This document shows positions 24,588 to 43,134 of a DNA stretch of 53,912 nucleotides, piece by piece. Positions within the stretch are counted from its first letter, which is position 1. Each line of letters begins with the position of its first letter. The position numbers and the translations under genes were made by a program. The notes below the pieces were generated by a model. It had not been told where the DNA came from. It did no database searches and saw only the letters and a list, made by a program, of their open reading frames with translations. Source of the stretch: Rhizaria sp. SCN 62-66 (Eukaryota); contig MEDY01000041.1 of the NCBI GenBank assembly GCA_001724265.1, positions 62,001 to 115,912 on the forward strand, in the 5' to 3' direction.

Positions 24588-27380
24588 TTACTTGTTCTCG
24601 TCGTCCTTCTTTGCACCGAATGAAAAGGGCTTTGTACCAATCGTGCTCGAGCCGGTGCCAAAGGCAGAGGCGGCGCCGAAGCCAGTGCTGAAAGCGGGTG
24701 CCGTACCAGAGCCAAAGGCCGCTGGTGCAGTGCTGGCATTGCCACCGAAGGAAAAGGGCTTAGGGGCACCGAAACCGAGCGAAGGAGTGGTCGCGGCACC
24801 GGCAGCAGGGGCGGCGGCGTCGGCATCAGCCGCGAGCTTCAGGGTGACACCGAAGAAGGGCTTGCCGCCCGCATCAGCAGCCGCGGCAGGCTTTGCACCG
24901 AAGCCGAACCCGGTCGAAGCAGGGACAGGGGCGGCGGCAGCATCGGCCGCAGCGAGCTTGGGGGCGGCGAAGCTGAAGGCAGGGGCAGGGGCGGACTTGT
25001 CAGTGGCGGCAGCGCCAAAGCCGGATGCGGGCTTGGGAGCGTCAGCGGCGCCGAATTTAGCCGCGCCAAACGAGAACCCACCAGCCGCAGGAGCAGTAGC
25101 AATGGCGGGCGTGGAGCCGAAGCCAAAGCCGGCGTTGGTCGAGTTCGCGGTCACGGTGACGGTATTGAAGCCAAACGAGAAGCCCGCGGGCTTGGGCACG
25201 TCAGCCGGCTTCGTCGTCGCCGCTGCGCTCGCGGTGACGGCGTCGACGGCGGCCTTGGGCGGCGACGGGGGGCTGGAGGAGATGTCGCCCTGGTCGTCAT
25301 CACCCTGCTCGTCGCCGTCGTTGCCTTCGTCCTGGTTGTCGTTGTCATCCTCAAAGTCGCCCTCGCCAGCGATCATGCTAGCGTCGCCCTCACCCTCATC
25401 CTCGCCATCGCCCTCGACGTCGTCGCCTTCAGTGGCAGCGGCAGCGTCACCCTCGACAGCGTCCTCGCCGTCGGCCTCATCCTGAGCAGCGTCAGCACCA
25501 GCCTCGGCATCGGCGTCGGCATCAACGTCGGCGTCAGCCTCAGCGTCGGAGGCTTCGATGCCAGCCTTGTCGCCGTTATTGCCGTCGTCGCTGTCGCTGT
25601 CGCCAAGAACAATCTCGGAGTCAGTGCCAGACTCGGAGCCAGAGCCGGCCTCGGAGTCAGAGGCCGCAGCGGAGGCATCCTTGGATGCGGCTTTAGAGCC
25701 AGCGCCCGAAGCCGCACTCTTCACGCTCTTGCCGTCGTCGTCATTGTCGCTCATGTCCTTGTCACGCTTCTTGTCAGCGTCGACGTCATCATCAACGTCA
25801 TCGTCATTGTTCTCGAGCTCGCCGTCACTACCGAACACATCAGCGCCCTGGTCATCGTCATCGTCGTCGTCCTCATCGGCGCCCTCGCCGAAGACGTCGC
25901 CCTCCATGTCGCCCTCCACTCCCCACATGCCACCTTCCAGAGCAGCGTCGCCTTCGTCGCCCTCGGCGGCGTCGGCGTCCTCGTCCTCGTCGGCGTCGTC
26001 CGAGCCGGCCTCGTCCTCCTCATCCGCGCCCTTGGCCACGGCCGCAGAGCGCGCGGCGGAGAAGTCGAAGCTCAGCTTGCTGCCCGTCGCGGACGTCGCC
26101 GTCGCGGCGCCGGCGCCGAACGAAAAGGCCGGCTTCGCGGCAGCCGCGCCGAATGAGAACGCCGGCTTGGAAGCAGGAGCAGCCTCAGAGGCAGCGCCGA
26201 AGGAGAGCGCGGGCTTCGCGGCGGGGGCAGTAGGAGCGGCAGCAGCAGCGCCGAATGAGAAAGCAGGCTTGGTTGCGGGGGCGGCAGTCTCAGTCGCCGA
26301 CGCCGAGGCAGGAGCCGCGGGCTTGGCACCGAAGCTAAAGGCGGGGGCAGCGGCAGCGGCGGGAGCAGCGGCCGGGGTGCCGAAGCTGAACGCGGGCTTA
26401 GCGGCGGGCTCCGCAGCCGCAGCTTCAGGGGCAGCCGCAGCAGCGGGCTTCACAGTCGCGAAGAAGCCGAAGGAAGGAGCAGCAGCCGCCGCAGCAGGGG
26501 TAGCAGCAGCTACGGTCGGCTCCGTAGGCTTAGCGGCACCGGAGCTGAAGACAGGCTTGCTCTCAGCAGCAGGAGCCGCAGCGGCGGCGGGGGCAGCGGG
26601 GGCAGCGGGGGCAGCAGCGGCGGGGGCCGCCGCCTTGAGGCCGAACGAGAAGACAGGACGTGGCTTCTCGGCGGCGGTCGAGGCCGCGGCGATGGCGGCG
26701 ACAGCGGCTTTCTCCGCCGCCAGGCGCTCCGCGACAACGCGCTCCGCCTCCGCCTGGGCATCCGCCTTGGCCTTGGCCTCAGCCTCGGCGACGTCCGCAG
26801 ACGCAGCAGCCTTGGCCGCGGCCGCGGCGCGGGCCTGGGCCTGCGCGAGTGCCGCGGCAACGGTGTCGGCCGCAGCAGCCACGAGGTCCTTGCCGGCTTT
26901 GTTGCTGGGGGCGGACACGTCCTCCTCCTCGCAGGCCTTGCCCTTAGCAGGAGCAGCGTCATTGGGAGCCGCAGCACCGCTCACATCGTCGACGTTGTCG
27001 TCGTCGCCGGCAGCGGGGAAGTTGAGCGACGCCATGATGTCACTGTCGGACATCGCGGCAAAGGAGCCGACACCGGCCGCAGCAGCAGCGGGGGCAGCAG
27101 CAGCGGGCGCCGCAGCGACAGCGGGCTTCGCGGCGCCAAAACTGAAGGCAGGCTTCGCAGCAGCAGCCTCCGGAGCAGCGGCAGCGGCAGCTGGCTTGGC
27201 GCCGAAACTGAAAGCCGGGGCGGCTGCAGCAGGCTCAGCGGCTGCAGCGGGCTTGGCACCAAAGCTGAACGCAGGAGCAGCGGCGGCAGCGGGCTTGGCG
27301 CCGAAGCTGAACGCGGGGGCAACAACCGGGGCAACGGTCTCAGCGGGCCTGGTGGCAGCAAAGCTGAACGCAGGCTTGGT
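24588..27380 (-). repeat. FG-repeat region (PAFSFG/GFGFG units) interrupted by a D/E-rich acidic block (~25300-26030)
   Basis: Roughly 25 FG/FxFG motifs with A/P/K spacers in the translation of the 24588..31694 ORF. Confidence 0.85.
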
Positions 27381-30300
27381 TTCGGCAGTGACAAGAGCAG
27401 CAGCAGCGACAGAAGCAGCTGCGGCAACCACAGGAACAACATCAGCGGCAGCGACAGAGCTCGCGACGGGCGCCGAGTCGGCCGAGATGTTGAGCGAGGC
27501 GTGCTTGACCTCGGTCTCGACCTCGGCCTCGAGCTTCTTGCCGCCCGCCGCGGCCGCCGCCGCCTCGCCCGCGCCCGCCGCGGCCGCGGCAACAAGCGCG
27601 GCGCCCTGCGGGAACATGCAGCAGTGCGCGAGGACGCCCGCGCGCAGCTCCGCGGCCCTGGCCAGGGCGGCGCGCGCGTCAGGATGCCCGTGCGCGGCGG
27701 CCGCGGTGGCGTCGGCGGCCACCGTGGCCAGCGCGGCGAGCAGGTGCTCCACCAGCGTCAGCGGCACCCACGCGCGCGCCTCGAGCTGCAGCGCCGAGAC
27801 CGCCGCGCCGTTGCCCGCACTTGTGCTGGCGCTGGCGGGGTTGGCGGGCATGAGCGCGCGCGCAAGCTCAGCCTCGGCCAGGTGCGCACGGACCGTGCGC
27901 AGCGTGCCGCAGGCTAGCGCCACGGCCTCGGGGATCATGTGGTACTTGACCAGCACGCGCACCAGCGGCTCCACGCCGAAGAAGGACCGCTCCGCGCGCC
28001 GCACCACGCTCCCCGCCGGGCCGCCCGTCGCCGCGGTTGCGGCCGCGGCCTTGAGCGCGTAGGCGGGCCCCGCGGTGGCCGAGGCCAGCACCCAGGCGGG
28101 CAGCTCGAGCGCGTCGTCGGCCGCGAGCACGGCCTCGGCCACGGTCGCGTAGTGCCGCGGGCCCCACAGCGCGCCGTCGGCCGCCACGCAGAGCTCGGTG
28201 GCGGCGCGCAGATGCGCCCACGCGGCGGCCGCGGCGCGGCGGTGCGCGGCGGCGCGGGCGAGCGCGGGCGACACGGCCGCCAGCGCGACCGGCGCCAGCG
28301 ACGGGTCGTGCTTGCTGCCCGCGAAGGCGAACGAGCCCGTCCGCGCGGCCGACACCGCGGGGCCACAGGGCGCGCCCACGCGCGGGTTGCCGCCGCCGCC
28401 GCGAGCCGTGAGCACGCCGAACGACAGCGGCGCCGGGACGCCTTGCTCCGCGGCGGCGGTGGCGGCGGGCACGGGGCCCGCGTGCGTGTGCGTGACGGCG
28501 AGCGGGGCCGCCGCGGCGGCGGCGCGCAGCGCGAGGGCCGCGGTGGCGCCGCGCGAGCTGACGGCGCGGAGCGCGGCGGGCACGGCCGTGAGCAGCGAAG
28601 ACGCGTGCAGCGCGGAGCGCGCGGCGAGGGCCGAGGGCGCAGGGGCCGCGACGCGGGCGGCGGCGGCGGGCGCGGCGGCGGCGGCCGAGGGCGCGGCGAG
28701 CTGGAGCGCCACACACGCGGTCGCAAAGGCGGCCAGCACGGCCGAGACGTCGGGTGCGGGCAGGCCCCAAGCGGCGGCGACGGGGCAGGCACTGCCAGCG
28801 AGCGCGGGCGCGGTCGCGCAGCGCGGCTGCAGCGCGGGCGCGGGGGCAAAGACGCGGAGCAGCGCCAGCGCGTCGGAAAAAAGGCCCGCGCGGACGAGGT
28901 GCGCGGCCACCGCGGCCACCGACAGCGGCACGGGCGCGGGCGAGCCGAGCGGCAGCACCGAGCCCGCTTGGGCGGTCGCGGCGCGCGCGAGCGCGGGCGC
29001 GGGGGCCGTGGGGTCGATGCCCGCGTCGAGCAGGCGCAGCTGCGCGGTGCAGAGCGCGACGCAACGCAGCAGGTGCGTGCGCGTCACGATGCGCAGCTGC
29101 GTCACCGTCCGCGTCCGCGCGCCGGCGCCGGCGCCGCTGTGCGCGCTGAGGGAGAGTCTGTGGCCGAGCTCTGCGGCGAGGTCCGCGGCGTCGGCGGCCG
29201 TGCGCGAGCGCTTGGAGGCGCCCGCGGCGACGGGACCCGCGCGCACCCACAGCTGCCGCTGCTGTGCGGCGTCGCCCGCGGCCGTGCCGGACGCGGCCTC
29301 ACCGTCCGAGTCATCGCTGTCCGAGAGCGCGAGCCCGAAGCGCGCGCGGCCCTTCTTGCCCGTCGACGGCGGCACCGCCGCGCCGCCGCGGCGCGGGGTC
29401 GCGCGGGTCGGCGTCGCGGCCGCGGCCGCCGATGCGGTGGACAGCACGAGGGCGCCGGAGCCGGCGCCAGCGCTGTGACGCAGCGCCGGCAGCGCGCCGG
29501 AAGCGTTCTTGCCATTGGTGACCTTGCTGCTGACGTCAGCGGGAGAGGGCAGCGTGCGCGTGACGGTCTGCTCGCACGACACCCAGTCGCAGGCCACGGC
29601 GTCAAGCGCGGCATCGGCGCCGGCGGCCGCGCGTGCGCGGGCGATGTCGAGCGCGCCCAGCGTGGCCGTGGCGGCGTCAGAGAGCGCCTGCACAATGGCG
29701 CGCAGCTGCCGCGCGCCGGCCGCCGCGGCGCCCGCGGGTGCGCGGGTGCGCGCGTCTGGCGCGGCGGCGGCGGCGGCGAGCGCGGCCTCGAGGCGCAGCG
29801 TCTGCTGCAGCATCGCCTTCGCGGCCATGCGCGGGTGCTCGCGCGTGAGGTACAGCGAGTACAGCACTTCCTCCGCCGTCAGCCGGCTGCCACCAGTCGC
29901 CTGCGGGGCGCGCGAGCCCGCCGCGGCGGCGGAGGCTGTGGCGGGGGCGCGGGAGTAGGCGAGCGCGACGTCGGCGGTCGCGGCGCGCGCCCAGAGCGCC
30001 TCCTCGAGCAGCGGCAGCAACGCGCGCCAGGGCTGCGCGAGCAGCGGCGCGATGGCGTTGTGGCTGTAGAGGTGGTCCGCGAAGCGCGCGACGAGCTGCC
30101 GCCGTAGGGCCGCGCTGCGCGCGCGCGCTGCGGCCGCGAAGGCCGTGTCGTACCAGGGCTCGGGGGTGAGCGCGCGCGCGTGGGCGTCATCGTCCTCGTC
30201 CTCCTCGTCAGTCTTGGCGCTGGCGTTGTTGCTGTTGCTGCTGCTGCTGCTGTCGGCGCGGAGGCGGAGGGCGAGGTTGAAGGTGTCGGCGCACAGAGCG

Positions 30301-33300
30301 TCGGCCACGGCGGCCGACACGAGCGGGAAGCGCGCTGACGCTGGGCCCGCGCTGGCGGCACCGTGCGCGTCGCCGTCGTTGCTGTCGAAGCCGGCGTCGG
30401 CGTCGGCTGCCTCGGCGGCGGCGTCGGGCCCGTCGGTGACCGCGAAGGCGAGCATGCGCACGAGCGAGAGCGCGTACCGCGTGCCGACCGCGCCGCTCGC
30501 ACCCGAGTGCGGCTGCGCGTTGGCGAGCAGCGCGGCGGCGCGGGCGAGCCTGGTGACCGCCTCGGCGGTCGCGGCGGCGGGCTGTGCGAGCAGCGCCGTC
30601 ACGGCGGCCAGGAAGCTGGCGTGCGCGGCGCGCGGCGCGCCCAGCGCGAGGTGGACGTGGCCCATGGCCTCGGCGAAGAGGGGCGCGGTGGCGAGCCCGC
30701 AGAGCGCGAGCAGCGTCGCGGCGTGTTGGTGCTGGCGCAGAAGCAGCAGCAGCAGCGCGAGCGCGCGCACGCGGGCCAAACCAACGCCCGCCGCGGCCGC
30801 CAGCGCCAGGTCCACGGGCGTGGCGCGCGCCAGCAGCAACGCCGCCGCCGCGGGGTTAGAGCCCGCGAGGGCCGCGGCGGAGATGTGCGCCGGCAGCAAC
30901 GACAGCGGGGACTCAGCGTCCGCGCTCAGGTCACTGGTGCTGACACCGCCGCTGCTGCTGTTGGCATCGTCGTTGTTGATGCCGACGTGGAGCGCGTCGG
31001 GTGCGGGCGCGGGGGACAGCGCAGCGAGCAGCGCAAACACGGCGTCCGTGACGGCGACGGCGGCGCCGCGCGAGGCGGCCGCGGACTTGGCGGCGGCCGC
31101 GGCGGCGGGGGATGCCGCGAGCAACGAGAGCAGCGAGTCATCGAGCGCGAGGGCCGCGCCCGCCTTGCTGAGGCCGAGTCCGAGGCCCGCGGCCACGGCG
31201 GGGTCCAGCGTCGGCGCCGGCAGCAGCGGGGCAGCGGTCGCAGCGCCAGAGCCCGCGCCGGCGACGGCCGGCAGCGGCAGCATCACAGCGGCCGAGGCCG
31301 AGGCAGACGCCGCGGCGGTCGCGGCGGCCGCGGCCGAGAGGGGGAAGTGCGCCGAGTACACGCCCGGGGCGACCTCGCTGGCGCGGCCGTGTGTCGCCGC
31401 GCCACTCTGAGCCGGGGCGGGAGCGGGCGCGAGCAGCGGAAGCGTAGCGAGCCAGCTGAGAACGCGGTAGGCGCGCAACAGGCGGGCCAGGCGCGGCAGC
31501 ACGGAGCGCGCGATGGCCGCCGACACCGAGGGCGCCTCGCCGGGCAGCGCCGCGGAGGCCGCGGCGGAGGCGTCAGGGTGCGCGGCCGCAGCCGTGAAGA
31601 ACAGGTACAGAGTGCGCGTCAGGCCGAGGTGCGCCGAGATGACCTGGAAATAGAACAAAGGGGAAAACATTATCAAAGGAAGCCATACATACATGAGTTA
31701 TGATTTCAAGCAAAATACAAATTCCCAATAAGCGAAATCATGACTCGTCGGCGTGCGATATATCATGAGAAGCATGGCGGCGTACCTGTCGGAAGGACTG
31801 CGCGACGAGCCTGGGCGCGAGCGCCACGGCGGCGGGGTGGCGCAGCCCGCGCTGGGAAGCGAGCGCCAGCGTCGCCGACAGCGGGGACGCCAGCGACGAC
31901 GGGTTGAGTGCCGCCAGCAGCAGGTCCGCGCCCTGGAGCGCGGCGCGCGGGGGCAGCGCGGCCAGCCACGCCTGCGCAGCCGAGGCCAGCGCGGCGCGGT
32001 GCGCGCGGTCCAGTCCGCCCGCCGCGGCCCCACTACCGGCGTGGCCAGAGGCGGCGGAGGGGGCGGCGGAGAGCGCGTGCAGCGCCCAGTCCGCGGCGGC
32101 CTCCCGAAGCGCGGCCTCGGAGAGCGGGTGCGACAGCGGCGGCAGCAGCAACCCGTCCCACGCGAACGCCGCGCCCGCGCCCGCGGCGCTAGTGCCGCGG
32201 AGGAGTTCGGCCTCGTGCGCACCAGAGCCGGCACCGGCGCCGTAGGGCACGAGCGCGTTGCTGCCGGCGCCGGCGCTGCTACTGCTGCTGTTGCTGCTGG
32301 CGTGGTGCATGTTCGCGATGAGCTCGGCGACCGCTGGCGCGATGCTGTCGGCGCCGAGGTCGCCGGACACTGCGCCCGCGAGCCCCGGCAGCGAGGTGGC
32401 GCGAGCAGTCACGGCGGCGGCGCGGACCGTGACGCACGCGGCGGCAACGAGCACCTGCATGGCGCTCTGCGCGGCGGCGGCGGCGGCGGCGGACCCGGGC
32501 CCCGCGCCTGCGAGCAGCGAAAGCGCGCGCGGCGCTGCGGCGGCGATGCCATGCGGCAGCGGTAAGCGCAGCAGTGGCGCTGCCGCGGGGACGGCGCCCG
32601 CGGCGGCGGCGACGAGCGCGGCGGGTGCGGGCAGCTGCGCGACGCCGGCGATGTACGCCGCCTCGAGTGGGGTTGCGGGCCGCAGGACCGAGATGGCGCG
32701 CGGGCGGATGAGCACAGGCGACGGCGAGGCGGACAGCGCGCCCAGCCCAAGGCAGACCGAGGCCGGGGCCGAGAAGAGCGGCTCAAGCGCCGCGCACGAG
32801 GCCAGGAAACGGAGCCACGCCCCCACGCGCGTCGCGGGCGACAGCGCGGCCCCGAGGCGCTGCCACTGCTGCTGCTGCTGCTGCTGACTGATGAGAGAGT
32901 CGTTGCCGGCGTAACCGAGGCGCGGCACGGCGTCGTTGTTGTCCGCGTCGCTCTCGCTGCCGTCCTCATCCTCATCTTCGTCCTCGTCGTCGTCGCCTTC
33001 GCCGGCAGCGGCGGCGGCGTCGGTCTCGAGGCCAAGCGCGGCGACCGCGGCGATGACAGCGAGTTTCAGCGCAGTCACCTCGGCAGCGACGAGCTCGCCC
33101 GTGCCCGCGCCCGCGCTCGCGGCGGCGGCTGCGGCGACAGCGACGGCGGAGGCCGCGGCGGCCGAGGCGGTGGCGGAGGCCGGGCACAATGTAGGCAGCA
33201 CGGTTGCGGGCGCGCCGGCCGCAGCGGCGCAGGCGTTGGCGGCCGCCAACACGGTCGCCGGCGAGAAGCGCGCGGGGAGGAAGACGCGGCTTAACATCGC

Positions 33301-35754
33301 GTCGTCGATGACGGCGGCGGCTGCGGCGGCGCTGGAGCGGTGCTGGGGGCTGCCCGCCGCAGCAGAGGCGTTGACGACGCCGTAGCTGCTGTACGCGAGC
33401 AGGCTCGCACCGCTGCTGGCGCTGCTGTCGAAGTGCACGGGGGTGGCCACAGCGGCGAGCGCGGCCGCTGCGGCCTCGGCGTCGTCGCGGCCCGTCACGA
33501 GCGCCTCAGCGTCGGCAGCGGTCAGCACCCGCTGCCACACGTTGCCGCCGCTGCCCGCAAAGCCGCCGCTGCTGTTGGCGGCGCGCGAGAAGGCGTCGTC
33601 GTGGGCCTGTGCGACCGTGAGCGCGCTCTGCGCGGCGGCCGCGGCCGAGGCGGCGGCTGCCGCGGGGGACGGATGGCGCCGGTCCTCCTCTGCATCGAGC
33701 ATGCCGCTCACAGTGCTGCTGCCGTTACTAGCGCTGTTGAAACCGAAGCCGCGAGCGCGGGCGGAGCGGCGCGCGGGCGTCGGCGGGTGCGCGGCCGCGG
33801 CTGTTGCGGCGGCGGCGGCGGCAGCGGCGGCCGAGGCCGATGCCGATGCCGAGACGGGCACGGGGTACGCCAGCGCCAGCGCAGCCGACGCGAGCCCCGC
33901 GCGCGGCAGCACGAGGCGCGGGAAGCCGCAGCCGGCGCGCGCGGCGCAGGGCGCGGGCACCAACAGCCTCAGCACCGACACACTGCTCGCGTTATGGCCA
34001 CTGCCACTTCCACTGCCACTGCCGCTATTGCTATTGGTGGCGCTAGCGTTGGTGTGCGCGAGCGACCAGCGCGCCCACACGACGCCGCCGCGCAGCGCCG
34101 TGTCGGCGAGCACGGCGGCGCCACCGCGGAGCCCCGGAGCGAAGGCAGACGCGCGCACTGCGTTGAGGTTGTCGGCCGCGGCGCAGACGGGCGCCAGCGC
34201 CACGCGCCCGCACGCCGACACCACCGTCGCGCCCGCAGAAGCAGATTGGTCGGCACTGCTGCTGCTGCTGCTGGCGGCCGTCGCAGCGACGGCGTTGGCG
34301 GCGTCCGCGCTGCTGTCAGACGCGAAGACAAAGTGCACCGCGTCGGCTGCGGCCGCCGTGGCGGCGTTGACGCCCGCGGCGGCGGCCTCGACGGCGGCTG
34401 CGGCCGCGACGGCGGCGGCGGCAGCGTTGGCGTCGGCGAGCGCGACGAAGGGCGCCTGCGCTGTGGAGAAGAGGTCGAAGTGGGGCGCCGCGTAGCCCGC
34501 GCGCGCGGTCGCGACCAGGAACGCGCCGGGCTCGTCAGACGCGGCCACGATGCGCGCCACCGCGGGCATGTCCGCGCTGGCGCAGGCGGTGGCGGCGGTG
34601 GTGTTGCTCTGCGCGAGAGAGCGGAGCGGGACGGTGATGACCACGCGCTGGGTGGCGATGCACCAGACACGGAGACGCGAGTCCGAGCAGGCGGCGAGCA
34701 AGAAGCGCGCGTCCGTAACCACGCCGTCCACAACCGCGCCGTGGGAGGGCATCGCGGCGATGGCCAGCACGCGGTACGCACCGACGGGACTCGCGGCAGA
34801 GGCGCTGACGGCGGAAACAGTGCCATTGTCGCTGTCGCCGCTACTGGCACCGCCCCAGAAGGAGGAGAGCAGCCCGCCGAGGCCCTTAATGGCGCCCGCA
34901 GCGACGGCGGCGGCCACGGAGGCCGCGGGCGCCGTCTCGACCAGCTCGATCTGCGGCAGTGGCACTGCAGCACTGGCAGTATTTGAAGCAGCAACAGCAG
35001 AGCCAGAGCGGGTGCTTCGGTGGCCGTGATGACTGTGACCGTGGGTGAGCGCGGGAGCGGGCGCGACGGGCTTGAGCGCGATGACGCCCGTGGCCGAGTC
35101 CGAGACGGCGACGGAGACGGTGCTCACGGCCGCGAGGCAGAAACGTGGGGCAGCCGAGGCCGCGGCGGCGGCGGCGGCGGCGGGCGCGAAGCCGGCCGCC
35201 GCGGCCGCAGAGCCCTGGGAGGGCGGGACGAAGGGCACGGACGTGAGCTGCGGCTCGACAATAAGCGACGACGTGCGCGCGTGCGCCTGCGTGTGCTGCG
35301 CGTACGCCGACTGCGCGGTGACGGAGAAGGCGCCGCCGCCGAGGCTGTGCTGGTGGTGGACGGCGGCGGAACGGCGGAAGTGTACGGGGTGCGCGAGCTC
35401 GATCCTGTGAAGCGTCATGTCGGCTGTGAGTGCAAAGAACACGACGCAGGGCTGCGCGGCCGAGGCCGAAGCGGCCGCGGGGTAGTGCTCGGCGACCGCG
35501 ACGGGGGCGATGAGCGCGGCGCCCAGGTCGATGGTGCGCGAGCCGTAGTTGCTCGGGTGGGAGGTTTGCACCTCGGAAAACGTGAGAGAAGAGTCCTCAA
35601 CACACCACACGAGCGAGACGGAGCTTTCGGTGCCGTCCTGGTTGTGGACGATGTGAGACGAGCCCGTGGAGGCATTGGCGGTGGCCAGGAACGGCAAGGG
35701 CAAGGCTGTGGCCTCGACCAGGCCGCACTCGCTGAGGCCTGACGCCGCGCTCAT
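24588..35754 (-). CDS. NUP160: Nucleoporin Nup160/Nup120 (Ala-expanded) with a C-terminal ~1,000-aa FxFG-repeat/acidic extension; ~3,670 aa
   Basis: Exons 35754-31786 and 31643-24588; intron GTACGC...ttccAG. Collinear Nup160-like motifs: LLAACSDSRLRVW (propeller), RVFLPARFSPATV, EVLYSLYLTREHPRMAAKAMLQQTLRL, LELPAWVL, LVRVLVKYHMIPEAVALA and AWVPLTLVEHLL. PAFSFG repeats follow, up to a TAA stop. Confidence 0.8.
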
Positions 35755-37826: not shown

Positions 37827-38349
37827 GCGGAGGTAGAGAGCGCGCGAGGGATGGCTCTTGTTAACGCAAGCCTTGTTGTTGTGAGATTTAAAAGTGAGTT
37901 GTTTTGATGCGGTTAATGTGAGATATTTAGTGAGTGATCGATGTATTCGTCTGTATCACAGGGCCACGTGAGCTAAAATGAAAACAAATACACCATAACG
38001 TGTTGATCTCGCGAGTTGTAAGTGTTCTAATAGGTTTGGAGGGTGATTTGTGGTAGGCTGTTTCTCGACTGACGGACGTTGCCAGACAAAATTGGACCGT
38101 GAAATATCGCCATGAAGAACTTCATGTACCAACGAATATAGCGGATCTTACATTTGAAAAAGATACACGAACGTGCTTTGTCATATCCGCGTTTATACAA
38201 TTTGTATATCTACTTGATTCACGGCGCTGTATCTCTTCTCGCATCTTCTCTCTCCACACTCTATCCACAACAGTCTCGTCCACCCTTTCCCCTAGCGCCC
38301 CACACCCGACAGACAGCTCCCGTCGCCCTGCCACCCATCTGCGCGCACG

Positions 38350-41300
38350 ATGGCGTACCGTCTGTACGTCGACACGCACTTCATGTGGGTGGTGCCGAAC
38401 GACGACCACCCGTACCACCACAGCGAGTTCGCGCCGGCGTTCCCCTTCTGCGAGCGCGACGCCGCCGCGCCCGCCGCCGTGCCGGGCCACTGGAACCACT
38501 CACAACACACGCTGCTGGTCGACCGTGTTACGCAGTCCGTGTTTGTGATTGATTCGGACACCGGCGACAGCCTGAACGCGCTCTGCCCGGCGTCGTTTGT
38601 GCCCGTCGAGGCGGAGCAGGAGGTGATGCGCTTCCCCTTGCCCTCCTCCACGGCTACGCACCGCCTCATCGAGGGGCTGGCGGGCGCCGTGTACCTCCTG
38701 CGCGGGCTACACCTCGTGCTTGTTACGCACGCGCGGCCCGTGGCCTCGGTGATGGGCCGCGCGGTTCTCGAGGTGCTGGCCACCGAGGTGCTGCCTGTGT
38801 CGGTCAACCAGCCCCTGCAGGATCTGAACCGCTCGCCGACGATCCTGCACGAGGAGTCGCAGTGCCTGCAGTCGCTGCAGCGCCACCTGGACAGCAACAC
38901 GCTGCTCTTTTCCCGCGACTACGACGTCTCGGTCACGCTCCAGAAGACCGCCGACTTCGCGACACTCCTCGCTGCGAACAGCAACAACGCCTCGAAGACC
39001 CAGTCCTCGGGTCAGAGCTCTGACACCTCCGCCAAGAGCTCCTTCGAGAGCGCCGCCGAGAGCTCTGCCCCCCCGCAGCTCCCCGCGCCTGCGCCGTGGT
39101 TGGCGTCCGTCCCCGCGTTCGCGTCGGAGCTGATCGGGCGCGCCGAGGACTGCTACTTCTACACGCGCGCGCACGCGGCGACGCTGCTTCACGCGCATCA
39201 GTGCTCCGTGGCGACGCTCAGCCCCGCCCTGCGCGCCGCCGCCGGGCTGCCCTCAGGCTTCCAGCTGACGCAGCCGCTGCACAGTCACCCTGCGTTCACG
39301 GCGCCCTCACTGGCCCGGACCGTGCCTGCGCTGCGGGCGCCCGCGCTGCCGTCGCGCGGGGACCCCAGCCTCGCGGCGCCGTTCATCCTCGTCCTTGTCA
39401 GCGGCACCGCCACCACGGCCACCTTTGCGTTGCCCAGCCCCGCTGCGCCCGCCGTGCCCCCCAACAGCGCGGGCCGCCGCCCTAGTGATGAGGCGGGGGG
39501 CTTGGTCCTGTCGGTAACGACGATCGCGCGCCGCAGTCGCTTCCGCACGGGCGGCCGGCTCGCGCAACGCGGCATCAACGCGCGCGGCCACGCGGGTGCG
39601 CAGGTCGAGACGGAGCAGATCGTCCAACTCTACGCCACCATCGACCACAAAAACAGCAACAGCAACAGCAACAGCAAGGCTCAGCTGCTGAAGCTGAGCG
39701 CGACCGAGGCCGAGACGGCGCGCGCTCTCAACGGCGGCGCACGCGTCCTGCCCCGCGCCCCCGCGCCGCGCCTGCTGCTCACCGCGATCTCCTCCTTCGT
39801 GATGCTGCGTGGCAGCGCGCCCGTGCCGTTTGCGCAGGCCCCCGCGATGCTCTTCGCCGGCGGCGCCTTCCGCTTCCCGATCATCGCGCCCGCGCCCGCG
39901 CCCGCGCCGTTCGCTGTCGCCGACTCGAACCAGCCGCAGTCGCAGCAAGAGGGCGCTGCGACGGGGCTGTCGCAAGTGCCGCCCGCGGCGCTGTCGGCGC
40001 TCGACGACGGCACTTTCGCGCCGCGCCTCATCGCCGCCCTCGCCGCCAGCCCGCGCGCGACCGCGGCGACGGTTTTCCCCGCGGCGCACCGCGGCGGCAG
40101 CGCGCTGGTCGGCGCCGTCACCGCGGGCGCACCCGCTCGCGCGCTGGCCGCCGTGGTCGCCGAGCTCGACCGCACCCGCGCCCGCGACCGTGAGCAGCTC
40201 AGCGGGGGTGACCGGGGGAATGACCGTGAGTAGGCGCAGCTGGACGGCAACGGGTGGTCGCGCGCACTGGTGGCGCCGGCCTCGTTGTGGCACCTGGACC
40301 AGCTGATCCGCACCTACCTCCCCCTCGCGCGCATCAACGCCACGCGCAACACCGCGTTCAGCAACAGCAGCAGCGGCGGCGGCTCTGCGTGGCCCTCGGC
40401 GCTGGCGCCCCCCGTGGCGGCCACGGCCGAGCCGCTGCTGCACGTGGTGTCCCTCTTCGCGGAGCGCGGGCCTGACTATCGCGCCCTTGCGGCCCGCTCC
40501 CAGGCCGCTGTCGCCGCGTTCAACTGGGCCTTCGCGTCGCAGGCGTCCTTCGCGCCCACGGCGGGCGTCTTCCCCGTCACGCCCGGCATGGTCCAGGCGG
40601 GCTTCTCCGCCACCTTTCACCCCGCCGACAACCCGGCGCCCGCCACGGGCCCTGACGGCGCCGCCGCGGGCGCAGTCGTCGCGGCCCCGGCGCCCGCGGA
40701 AGCGGACACGGCGTGGCTCGAAGACTGCGGCGCGGGCTTGATAGTCGCCACAGGTCCCGCGGGGTCGGTCCTTTACGCCGACCCCGCGCCCGCGCTCACC
40801 GCGGCCGGTCTGCCCCCGCGCGCCACCGCTGACGCCGCCGTGGCCGCGGCCGCGCGGCCAGCGCTCGCGCTCGCGGCGGCGACGCCCGTGATGTATCACG
40901 CGGTCCCCATCACCGACGCGCCCGGCGCGCTCCCCGCGGCCACCGAGCGTCTGGCCGCCATCGCGCGCCGCTGCGGCGTTTTCGCGGCCGCCTTCGTACC
41001 GCTCGACCGCGCGGTTACTATGGCCGAAGCGGGGGCGGCCGAGCGCGGCGGCTACCGCGCGCGCTGGCTCGCGCAGACGCCGCTGGGCGCCGCGCTGGCG
41101 CCCGCGGACGATGGGGGGGCTGGCGAGGCCGGTGGCGCCGTGTGCGGCGTGCTGGCGCGCGTCACTGTCCCGCTTACGGTCACCTCGCTGCGCCAGCGCG
41201 CCATGCAGGGCATCGCCGTCGGCAGCACCGTGCCCGTTGTCGCCCAGTCGCAGCCTCAGCAGTCGCAGTCTGCGAGCGAGGACGCGCCGGTCGCCGGCGC

Positions 41301-43134
41301 CGTGGTGGTCTCGCGGCAGCACGCCGTGATGCGCACGCACTGCATCGACTGCCTGGACCGCGCGGGCAAGGCGCAGGCCATCGCGCTCGCGGCTGCGGCC
41401 CCGCTGCAGCTCGTCGCGCTGGGTCTTGGCCCGACGCTCGCCCCCGGCGCAGTCGACCCCGCGCCCCGGCCTGCGGGCGCGCTGCCCGCGCCCGTGGTGC
41501 TATTCTCCCCGCTCCTCACGCCGCCGGAGTCAGACGTCGCTAACGCCGCTCACACCGGCGCTGCGCCGCAGTCCCAACAGTCAACGCTGTCGCTCCTGTC
41601 GCGGTTCACCGCCGACGGCTCCGCGTTCGACCCCAACAAGAGTGTGCTGGCGCCCTCGCCGCTGCTGCGGCCCTCCGCCGCCGCCGCCGCCGCCGGCCTG
41701 CTCCCCGCCCGCGGCGGCGACGGCGCGGGCGCGGGCGCGGGCGCGGGCGTGACGGCGTGGCGGCCGCTCGGGCCGCTGCTGCCGACGCTGCTGGAGCTGA
41801 CCAACGAGAGCAACGACCAGCTCGCGCTCATGGCCGCCGCGACGCCCGCGCTGTTCCCGCTGGCGCTGGCACCACCGCGCGCCTCGGCGCTGTCTGCGGC
41901 CGCTCACCGCGGGGACCTGCTGGCCGCGGCCTCGCTGACGGGCGCGACGCACTCGGCGCACCGCACGCACACGGCGCTGGTGCTGCCGTACAAGCCGTTG
42001 CAGGGCTCGGCGCGCGGCGAGGCGCCCGCGCAGCTCACGGCGCGCGCGCTCGCCGCCGCCGCCGACGCCGCCGCGGGCCGCCCCACCGCCGTGGCTGTGC
42101 CACCCGCGCTCGTTCGCTACGTGCGCGCGCACCCCGGCGCCGTTGCCGCGCCGCCCGCGCACCTGCCCATGTACCTCGCGTTGCAGATCGAGGCGATGCT
42201 GCCGCCGCCGCCGCTGCGCGCGCTGCTGCTGCGGCCCTGGGCGCTGCTGGGCTCCGTCGCAGCGGCCGCGCTTGCGCTGCCCGGCGCTATCACGAGCAAG
42301 CTCACGCCCGGCGCACTGCGCAGCGGGCTGGTGATGCTCGAGCGCAACAGCTTCGACCGCGCGTGGGCGGCGCGGCTCGGCGACGACGCGCGCCTCTTCC
42401 GCACCGCGTACCGCCCGCAGCGGCACCTGCTGTATCACTCGGGTGCGCAGATCGTGCGCGACCCCGACGCGCCCGCGGGCACACAGGCGCGCTTCATGAT
42501 CGAGCCGCTGCCGGACACGGCGCCGCGCGCGCCACACCCCGCCCTGTTGGCGCTCGCCGCGCTGGCCGCTGTCACCGCGGGGCTCGCCGCCGCGTTCTTC
42601 TCCGCGCACCTGGTGCCGATCCCCGCCGCGTTGACCGAGCTCGCGCCCGACTGGGTCCTCCTGCTGGTGCTGGGGCTGCTCCCGGTCAACCTGCCCACGG
42701 CCGACGCGCTCCACGCGGCGCTCTCCCGCGGCGCCCGCGCGCCTGTGCCCGCGTTCCGCGCGCTGCAGGACGTTACGGCGGGCTACGCGCAGCTGCGCGC
42801 GCGCCACGCGCCCGGCGCGCTGCCGCCGCTGCTGTGGCGCTGTGTCGTGCGCCAGTGGCCGCTGTGGCGCCACGCCGTGGTGCTTGTCCTGGGCACTGCG
42901 GTGCTCACAGCGCTCCTCGCGTGGTGGACGCGGCGCAGGCTCGTCGCCGTCAACGTCATCCCCTGGCGCGCGCTCTCGGACCCCGTGGACTTCGGCCCGC
43001 CGGCGTATGCTAAGCCGCATGTCCCGTCGGCGTCATCGTCGAGTGGCGCGAAGAACAACAGCAACCCCAGTGGTGACAAGAGCGAGAGTAGTGGCGGCAC
43101 TGCGGGTGGGAAGAAGGGACGCAAGGGCAAGTAA
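38350..43134 (+). CDS. SAC1: Divergent SAC1-like phosphoinositide phosphatase (~1,590 codons) interrupted by one in-frame TAG at 40231-40233; either a recoded gene or a pseudogene
   Basis: ORFs 38350-40233 and 40270-43134 are in the same frame, separated only by the TAG. The 5' half has GLAGAVYL...HLVLVT, LLFSRDYDVS.TLQ, ARRSRFRTGGRL.QRGI...G....VETEQIV and SSFVMLRGSAP. The 3' half has MRTHCIDCLDR, NDQLALMAAATPAL, C-terminal hydrophobic helices and a Lys-rich end. TAA stop. Confidence 0.8.

Follow-up and report, generated by a model that had tools for sequence, protein, structure and literature searches.

What does an in-frame TAG in the middle of a long phosphatase-like gene mean: a broken gene, a misread base, an intron, or a codon that the organism reads as an amino acid? 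The question is raised by a 53,912-nt stretch of DNA from Rhizaria sp. SCN 62-66 (assembly GCA_001724265.1, contig MEDY01000041.1, positions 62,001 to 115,912 of the forward strand; hereafter, the window), in which a gene resembling the SAC1/FIG4 family of phosphoinositide phosphatases carries a single TAG. We confirm that this TAG is real and is one case of a genome-wide pattern. UAG is very probably read as sense in this genome, and we put at about 0.8 the probability that it encodes Glu, with UAA and UGA as stops, in the nuclear code of an uncultured single-celled eukaryote that appears to be a cercozoan. The features of the gene are as follows:

38350..43134, + strand: single-exon gene resembling SAC1/FIG4-family phosphoinositide phosphatases; 1,594 codons with TAG taken as sense, ending in TAA
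39376..39849, + strand: stretch of the SacI homology domain (Pfam Syja_N, E = 3.1e-25; residues 343-500), 5' of the TAG
40186..40197, + strand: 12-nt direct repeat, copy 1, last codon CAG
40222..40233, + strand: 12-nt direct repeat, copy 2, last codon the TAG, presumably derived from CAG by C>T
40231..40233, + strand: in-frame TAG, codon 628; most likely Glu, a meaning taken from the genome-wide evidence rather than from the site
41332..41364, + strand: SAC-domain catalytic motif CX5R, 3' of the TAG
43132..43134, + strand: terminal TAA of the SAC1-like gene

As originally predicted from the letters of the window, the TAG is the sole stop within an otherwise open frame, and it separates the N-terminal SAC motifs, represented by the Syja_N match, from the CX5R motif, which lies 367 codons further 3'. 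Both features place the protein in the SacI domain family, but Ala follows the catalytic Arg where Thr is usual, and His precedes the Cys where Asn is usual; with these altered residues, the catalytic activity may differ. Homologs with matches on both sides of the TAG in one chain include P0375 and four others tested, and the alignment to P0375 covers residues 1-513, 965-1026, and 1323-1574. In the public protein set, the gene is split into two pieces of 627 and 954 residues. The local repeat that had been noticed around the TAG also holds, the two copies being alike at 11 of 12 nt with CAG opposite TAG; the TAG therefore probably arose from CAG, which does not show what it means at present. 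The site itself was rejected as a source of the residue: a conserved Glu (106 of 113 sequences) occurs in this part of the SAC domain and a global alignment to P0375 puts the TAG adjacent to it, but the family profile is unaligned at the TAG and a local alignment gives another register with no residue preferred, so the site was not used for the assignment.

The sequence at 40231 was checked against other data. A contig from run X3 over 39327-41499 has no letter different from the window, TAG included, so that an error of base calling in a single run is excluded as the source of the TAG. Since X3 and X2 may be one and the same data set, and X2 comes from the study of the possible source run X1, the independence of this confirmation is limited. 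A contig from X4, a run of another study, spans 40161-40341 with one difference from the window, whose place within that span is not given. Separately, contigs of X4 and X5 over 38348-38892 are approximately 82% identical to the window and apparently represent a sister species, and a strain approximately 99.6% identical is also present.

The original prediction had argued against splicing on the grounds that the nearby GT and AG dinucleotides do not keep the frame. In-frame GT-AG pairs able to remove the TAG do exist further away (76 within 400 nt), but the conclusion stands, all of them being weak-scoring or too GC-rich. Five pairs of at most 120 nt score no higher than 1.8, below the first percentile (2.3) of predicted introns, and the better-scoring pairs span 351-567 nt of 75% GC sequence, compared with 32-60% GC in predicted introns. 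With stop penalties as far as -20, the gene model left the gene as a single exon; only at -30 did it choose a weak 78-nt intron. Splicing out of this TAG is, on these sequence grounds, unlikely.

Genome-wide stop usage, a tRNA with a CUA anticodon, and the release factor eRF1 were the places where the original prediction suggested looking further, and all three support its proposal that UAG is a rare sense or read-through codon. Within the window, none of the complete genes of at least 100 codons (12,584 codons) ends in TAG, as had been stated, although the genes number 13 (10 TAA, 3 TGA) and not 14 (11 and 3). For a larger sample, we replaced a first crude codon-score scan, which was too noisy, with a self-written, self-trained gene model in which the three stops cost alike inside genes and at their ends, and applied it to 654 kb, comprising the window and the first 200 kb of contigs C1, C4, and C42. 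At a penalty of -6.5, genes contained 19 internal TAG, 1 TGA, and no TAA; over six penalties, the counts were 14-27, 1-3, and 0-3, respectively. Internal TAA was zero at five of the six penalties, on which ground a coupled code with both UAA and UAG (UAR) as Glu was rejected, and TAA is the commonest stop. In the window (24588-35754, - strand), the model also fuses two long frames into a two-exon gene of 3,674 codons with a Nup120/160 propeller match.

Gene ends, by contrast, are almost free of TAG. At the penalty of -6.5, 77 genes ended in TAA, 56 in TGA, and only 8 of the 141 in TAG; of these 8 frames, 5 continue as coding frame, 1 runs via a second TAG into a UCH domain, 1 ends behind a lone internal TGA that is probably the true end, and the last (C1 near 186289) may be a real TAG terminus. 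When TAG was forced to be sense, 27 TAG codons fell in 22 of 135 genes (168,511 codons). The frame after an internal TAG stays open for a median of 795 codons, versus 17 after a terminal TAA and 12.5 after a terminal TGA, a difference that is partly circular because the TAG sites were chosen by a coding model. From codon usage, nonsense mutation is expected to yield 67-69% TAG, whereas 26 of 26 internal stops are TAG (P = 2-7e-5; one doubtful TGA excluded), as are 13 of 13 predicted internal stops at further loci. TAG codons are also clustered: one UCH gene has four, and so does a gene of 6,682 codons (G000:C42:24259-32696; C1:141801 onwards).

Scans of the whole genome for protein families, which are independent of the gene model, gave 20 lone-TAG matches, 9 of them exonic and 11 at intron ends; of 11 TAA or TGA checked in such matches, none lay within a predicted exon. 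Eight mixed-stop matches were left unfetched and taken as spanning introns. Most families scanned had no exonic TAG at all, including DEAD (43 matches), AAA (22), WD40 (149), kinesin (54), SMC (13), DHC_N2 (13), ABC (20), SNF2 (25), dynein AAA_6 (18), myosin (6), and HSP90 (5). A Pfam scan of 28 stretches around TAG sites returned 4 with a family match, none over the TAG, and a search for a kinase APE motif with TAG as its last codon gave 30 matches versus 36 in the control, the 9 fetched including no kinase. Programmed, gene-specific readthrough was rejected as well: the base 3' of the internal TAGs is mixed (C 10, G 10, T 3, A 3), the 100 nt after 40233 fold worse than shuffled sequences (z = +1.67), leaving no notable structure 3' of the TAG, and TAG is not a normal stop.

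A candidate decoder is present, as one intact gene:

L038:1489-1561 (= G000:C84:76008-76080), - strand: tRNA with CUA anticodon, identified by pattern search and Rfam

This gene, one among 18 pattern hits, is intergenic on C84 and followed by a T run, and its Rfam score of 58 bits lies in the range of the 63 other tRNA hits (50-70 bits; 63 of 506 candidates were scored, and the tRNA inventory is to that extent incomplete). When it was compared with the other tRNAs of the genome (24 types, one example each), the best match score was 47 of 73, to tRNA-Glu(CUC), followed by tRNA-Glu(UUC) (38), tRNA-His and tRNA-Asp (37), and, further down, the two Gln tRNAs (31 and 25). Its first five acceptor pairs are as in both Glu tRNAs and its T stem is as in tRNA-Glu(CUC), whereas the Gln tRNAs of the genome begin with G1-C72. 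It carries A36-A37-A38, where both Glu tRNAs have C38; this is a pattern that isopentenylation of A37 requires and that good amber suppressors typically show. A UUA tRNA was not found (6 and 6 pattern hits), although intron-containing or deviant tRNAs could have escaped the search. Identity as a pyrrolysine tRNA (tRNA-Pyl), suggested by ARAGORN, was rejected: the label rests on the anticodon only, the fold is standard with a 5-pair anticodon stem, and the gene matches RF00005 alone (pyrrolysyl-tRNA synthetase was not searched for).

The third line of evidence is the release factor. A scan with eRF1 domain 2 returned a single eRF1 gene and a single pelota-like gene, and the eRF1 gene combines changes in its stop-reading motifs with an in-frame TAG of its own:

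L003:1981-1983 (= G000:C63:103463-103465), - strand: in-frame TAG of eRF1 (codon 111), in the second of four exons and 5' of the GGQ motif

At this TAG, a second assembly is identical; the codon corresponds to human position 107, where 117 homologs have E (106), D (10), or V (1). Three substitutions (T32S, G57S, and L124M) fall at columns invariant in these homologs; M34V, T58K, F114V, L126M, and K130Q are further changes, and E55, NIKS, L69, S70, and YxCxxxF are retained. The eRF1 of the closest relative (P0005, 84% identical) shares M34V, T58K, F114V, and L126M and keeps T32, G57, and L124. Thr32, which Iotanema has replaced by Gly, forms a bond to the third-position G of UAG (PMC5304391), and L126 affects stop discrimination (PMC4482090); a term search of PMC12440015 returned none of the eRF1 substitutions sought. 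The N domain thus resembles those of UAG-only codes in being altered, and its function may be affected. In metagenomes, 32 loci related to this eRF1 were found, of which one is an identical copy and the others are too distant to show whether the TAG is conserved; among 12 other loci listed, one has Gln at that column.

The residue was judged from 10 exonic TAG sites within Pfam domains, at which the summed scores were 994.5 bits for Glu, 990.7 for Gln, 990.4 for Lys, 987.0 for Asp, 980.0 for Tyr, and 978.3 for Leu; Ser and Trp, scored at 7 of the 10 sites, were 9.8 and 21.5 bits behind Glu. Only 2 of the 10 sites are well conserved, and both are Glu columns. One is the eRF1 codon; at the kinase hinge site of locus L215, Glu scores 2.4 bits above Gln, and the same position in 16 aligned kinases of the genome holds E (11), D (4), or P (1). 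Leu, the meaning of UAG in the known rhizarian code, is out at 16 bits behind Glu. The inclination of the original prediction toward Gln is not supported, with the CUA tRNA closest to tRNA-Glu and the two best-conserved sites both Glu columns.

A number of observations nevertheless weigh against Glu or against the evidence for it. The gene model is self-trained and covered approximately 2% of the genome, and among the listed contigs of RNA run X5 none covers 40231; the same is true of the listed pieces of run X7 (runs X6-X10 hold small shares and are no evidence of habitat). The lead of Glu over Gln is only 3.8 bits and comes mainly from three sites, namely the kinase hinge, a second kinase site, and eRF1; over Lys it is 4.1 bits. 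At the hinge, KSR2, the best solved match to the L215 kinase, has Ser, and RAF kinases have Gln; at L208, Leu, Tyr, Lys, and Gln all outscore Glu, and one UCH site favours Leu. At the TAG column, the closest eRF1 relative carries Val, and the eRF1 of the present genome is fast-evolving, differing at 28 of 168 well-conserved columns, so that conservation predicts less than usual and not every substitution need matter. A flank classifier puts Glu in 15th place among 20 residues with 25 TAG sites and in 16th place with 26, the top ranks going to His, Tyr, and Arg. Its Glu-minus-Gln score is -4.3 for TAG, compared with +13 for GAG and -20.5 for CAG; because the classifier is also wrong for ATA and AGA, two rare codons, it has little power for TAG and was rejected as weak. 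In a review of tRNA identity (PMC9976931), the Gln determinants of Escherichia coli include U1-A72, G73, and U35, and amber tRNAs in that bacterium are often charged with Gln; its table leaves the Glu and Gln identity sets of eukaryotes empty. Finally, a ubiquitin-like copy has a TAG where the ubiquitins of the genome have Gln:

L097:1501-2091 (G000:C681): ubiquitin-like domain containing an in-frame TAG and joined to an unrelated C-terminal region; the DNA is AT-rich

This copy may be a mobile-element capture or a pseudogene. The ubiquitin genes proper (L095, L096, L098, L099, and L102) each encode one unit, preceded by two extra N-terminal residues and followed by a short tail past the di-glycine; some stand in tandem, and no polyubiquitin occurs in the 8 loci fetched.

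In the main rival, UAG means Gln, either because glutaminyl-tRNA synthetase charges the CUA tRNA or because a near-cognate tRNA-Gln reads the codon. The repeat in the window, the ubiquitin-like copy, the second place of Gln in the Pfam sum, the slight lean of the flank score, the charging of amber tRNAs in E. coli, and the existence of UAG-only Gln codes (PMC5304391 and PMC11687900) all favour it. We nonetheless consider it unlikely given the low match of the CUA tRNA to the Gln tRNAs and the absence of Gln both at the eRF1 column in 117 homologs and at the hinge in the 16 kinases; origin of a TAG from CAG says nothing about its present meaning. Improbable, too, is read-through with another residue or a mixture (Lys, Asp, Tyr, or whatever near-cognate tRNAs insert), with the CUA tRNA not the main decoder. 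The small deficit of Lys, the top ranks of the flank classifier, and the difference of the CUA tRNA from tRNA-Glu(CUC) at 26 of 73 positions would fit; against it, Tyr and Leu trail Glu by 14-16 bits, an intact cognate tRNA with a normal Rfam score exists, and both well-conserved sites are Glu columns.

Under the standard code, the TAGs would be nonsense alleles, pseudogenes, or base-call errors, which the original prediction held to be at least as likely at 40231; sense reading or read-through is far more likely, and the standard code is largely refuted and to be given very little credence. It draws some support from the great rarity of TAG, from the genes that carry several, and from the TAG flanks, which resemble a mixture of the codons one step away, as nonsense mutation would produce (we estimate that such a mixture would give a Glu-minus-Gln score of about -4). 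But nonsense mutation predicts that approximately one third of internal stops are TAA or TGA, and there are none in the clean set or in the exons of the family scans; TAG is almost lacking at gene ends; the sole eRF1 gene found would be truncated before its GGQ motif; and a CUA tRNA exists, with X3 and L107 holding the same TAGs. Removal of the TAGs from mRNA by cryptic splicing or RNA editing is hardly tenable, for although in-frame GT-AG pairs surround 40231, an intron can be forced there at a high stop cost, and the listed RNA contigs leave the site uncovered, the short pairs score below nearly all predicted introns in a region of 75% GC, the residues flanking the TAG in eRF1 and the kinases align to homologs without gaps and so leave no room for an intron, and neither the CUA tRNA nor the absent TAG ends would be explained.

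Which organism uses this code is suggested by a class IV-like myosin, whose best named matches are rhizarian. In a quick tree of 38 rows, it falls in a 21-row clade (Shimodaira-Hasegawa-like approximate likelihood-ratio test, SH-aLRT, 95) whose 6 named members are all cercozoan; the placement in Cercozoa (Rhizaria) is tentative and comes from one gene. For eRF1 and HSP90, there was no named close match. Of the five myosin genes found (L160-L165), three are class IV-like and carry WW domains; none resembles myosin II. The only 18S rRNA gene found was rejected as a lineage marker:

L074:1501-5945 (G000:C706): 18S rRNA gene, AT-rich, with an extra hairpin after helix 17

The hairpin is similar to helix 17_1, which marks tetramitian Heterolobosea (PMC12328842), and the heterolobosean-like gene probably comes from another organism as a contaminant of the assembly. 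By eye, four group I introns seem to interrupt it, and the first of them holds a frame resembling a His-Cys-type endonuclease.

No codon in the modelled genes is rarer than TAG (26, versus 71 ATA and 101 AGA), which amounts to approximately 0.4% of Glu codons and 0.016% of all codons, or about 1 in 6,000; extrapolation to the 34.9-Mb assembly gives an expected total of about 1,400. TAG favours genes of low G+C content at third codon positions (GC3; 17, 4, and 6 TAGs in successive thirds of the codons), and it is skewed toward the 5' end, with 16 of 27 in the first quarter of the gene, where eight control codons have 18-31% (P = 1.6e-4). The skew persists without three sites weak upstream (13 of 24, P = 0.002) and beyond codon 100 (P = 0.015), although errors in start sites could inflate it. 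Rarity and skew together suggest a weak or incomplete reassignment, and inefficient decoding, with or without residual termination, would be the simplest cause of both.

A possible mechanism for UAG as Glu is as follows. A copy of tRNA-Glu(CUC) would have gained C36>A while still being charged with Glu; T32S in eRF1, perhaps with G57S, would weaken the grip on the third-position G of UAG; and UAG would be lost as a terminator. The codon would then re-enter genes by point mutation (from CAG, GAG, TCG, TAC, and others) wherever Glu is tolerated. That TAG arises from any neighbouring codon and survives where the new residue is tolerated is what we infer, and the CAG/TAG repeat of the window fits. 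Inefficient decoding would keep UAG the rarest codon, and the SAC1-like gene would yield one protein of 1,594 residues with Glu628.

More tentative is the possibility that reassignment is incomplete, with eRF1 still stopping partly at UAG in competition with the single tRNA-Glu(CUA) and a feedback loop acting on eRF1. Partial stopping would account for the rarity of UAG, its 5' skew, and its preference for low-GC3 genes. In the loop, more eRF1 would cause more premature stops at codon 111 and hence decay of its own mRNA. Such autoregulation through its own UAG is possible and not favoured, because at the genome rate a 441-codon gene has a 7% chance of containing a TAG and the closest relative has Val at that column.

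UAA and UAG almost always share one meaning. A code with UAG as Glu and UAA and UGA as stops would be a new variant and, in the literature covered, the second non-standard nuclear code in Rhizaria, with an amino acid unlike that of the first; no report of it was found in the literature searched, which most subscription papers lie outside. With the codon pattern, a candidate tRNA, and eRF1 changes in one genome, the role of Thr32 in reading UAG becomes directly testable. Screens of conserved columns would probably miss codes in which the reassigned codon is so rare, and rare-codon codes may be under-counted. A GC-rich genome with a nearly unused, 5'-skewed reassigned codon offers a test case for codon capture versus an ambiguous intermediate. 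For annotation, the consequence is that standard gene callers break roughly one in six genes of the organism (22 of 135). If incomplete reassignment with the eRF1 feedback were true, the genome would offer a eukaryotic counterpart of bacterial RF2, whose autoregulation uses a frameshift at an internal UGA, and an ambiguous intermediate in code evolution that is still alive. Plant eRF1-1 is autoregulated by readthrough of its terminal stop together with nonsense-mediated decay (PMC5397192); here, the UAG is internal, in exon 2 of 4, and full expression would, as in eRF1-1 and RF2, be tied to the efficiency of termination.

Several known codes invite comparison. Among those with UAG as sense, that of the heterolobosean Dactylomonas is reportedly a further one in which it means Gln. 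UAG as sense with UAA as stop has been reported with the meaning Leu (the rhizarian exLh and some ciliates) or Gln (Iotanema and some ciliates) (PMC5304391, PMC11687900) and with the meaning Ser in Scotinosphaera (PMC8271138). The closest in lineage is exLh (Sainouroidea; PMC5304391), a cercozoan nuclear code, as this one appears to be, with UAG as sense and UAA and UGA as stops. There, UAG means Leu and is common (384 in 71 genes, versus 27 in 135 here), eRF1 has L69A with intact motifs, whereas this eRF1 keeps L69 and has T32S, G57S, and T58K, and the tRNA is only predicted, whereas a CUA tRNA gene is found here. Iotanema, the phyllopharyngean ciliates, and Scotinosphaera share with this genome the uncoupling of UAG from UAA and a CUA suppressor tRNA from the family of the new amino acid, and Iotanema also a change of Thr32 in eRF1 (PMC5304391). 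All of them use other amino acids (Gln or Leu; Ser) and belong to other lineages, and among the Gln codons of those ciliates UAG has a share of 18.5-31.8%, compared with approximately 0.4% of Glu codons here.

In the literature covered, UAG as Glu is reported only together with reassignment of UAA, to Lys (PMC10553269) or to Glu (PMC11687900, PMC12153298). Oligohymenophorea sp. PL0344 (PMC10553269) resembles this genome in that UAG means Glu and the tRNA-Sup(CUA) genes are closest to tRNA-Glu; it differs in that UAA means Lys, only UGA stops translation, and there are 10 CUA tRNA genes, whereas in the present genome UAA is the most used terminator, and the searches returned a single CUA tRNA gene and no UUA tRNA. 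In peritrich ciliates and Blastocrithidia (PMC11687900, PMC12153298), a tRNA-Glu(CUA) reads UAG, as proposed here, and UAA has been reassigned together with UAG. Blastocrithidia avoids its reassigned codons in highly expressed genes, and its genomes have lost GC and use UAG at 1.4-1.7% of codons, whereas the genome described here couples GC-rich coding DNA with a UAG that is used, very sparsely, as a probable codon for Glu.

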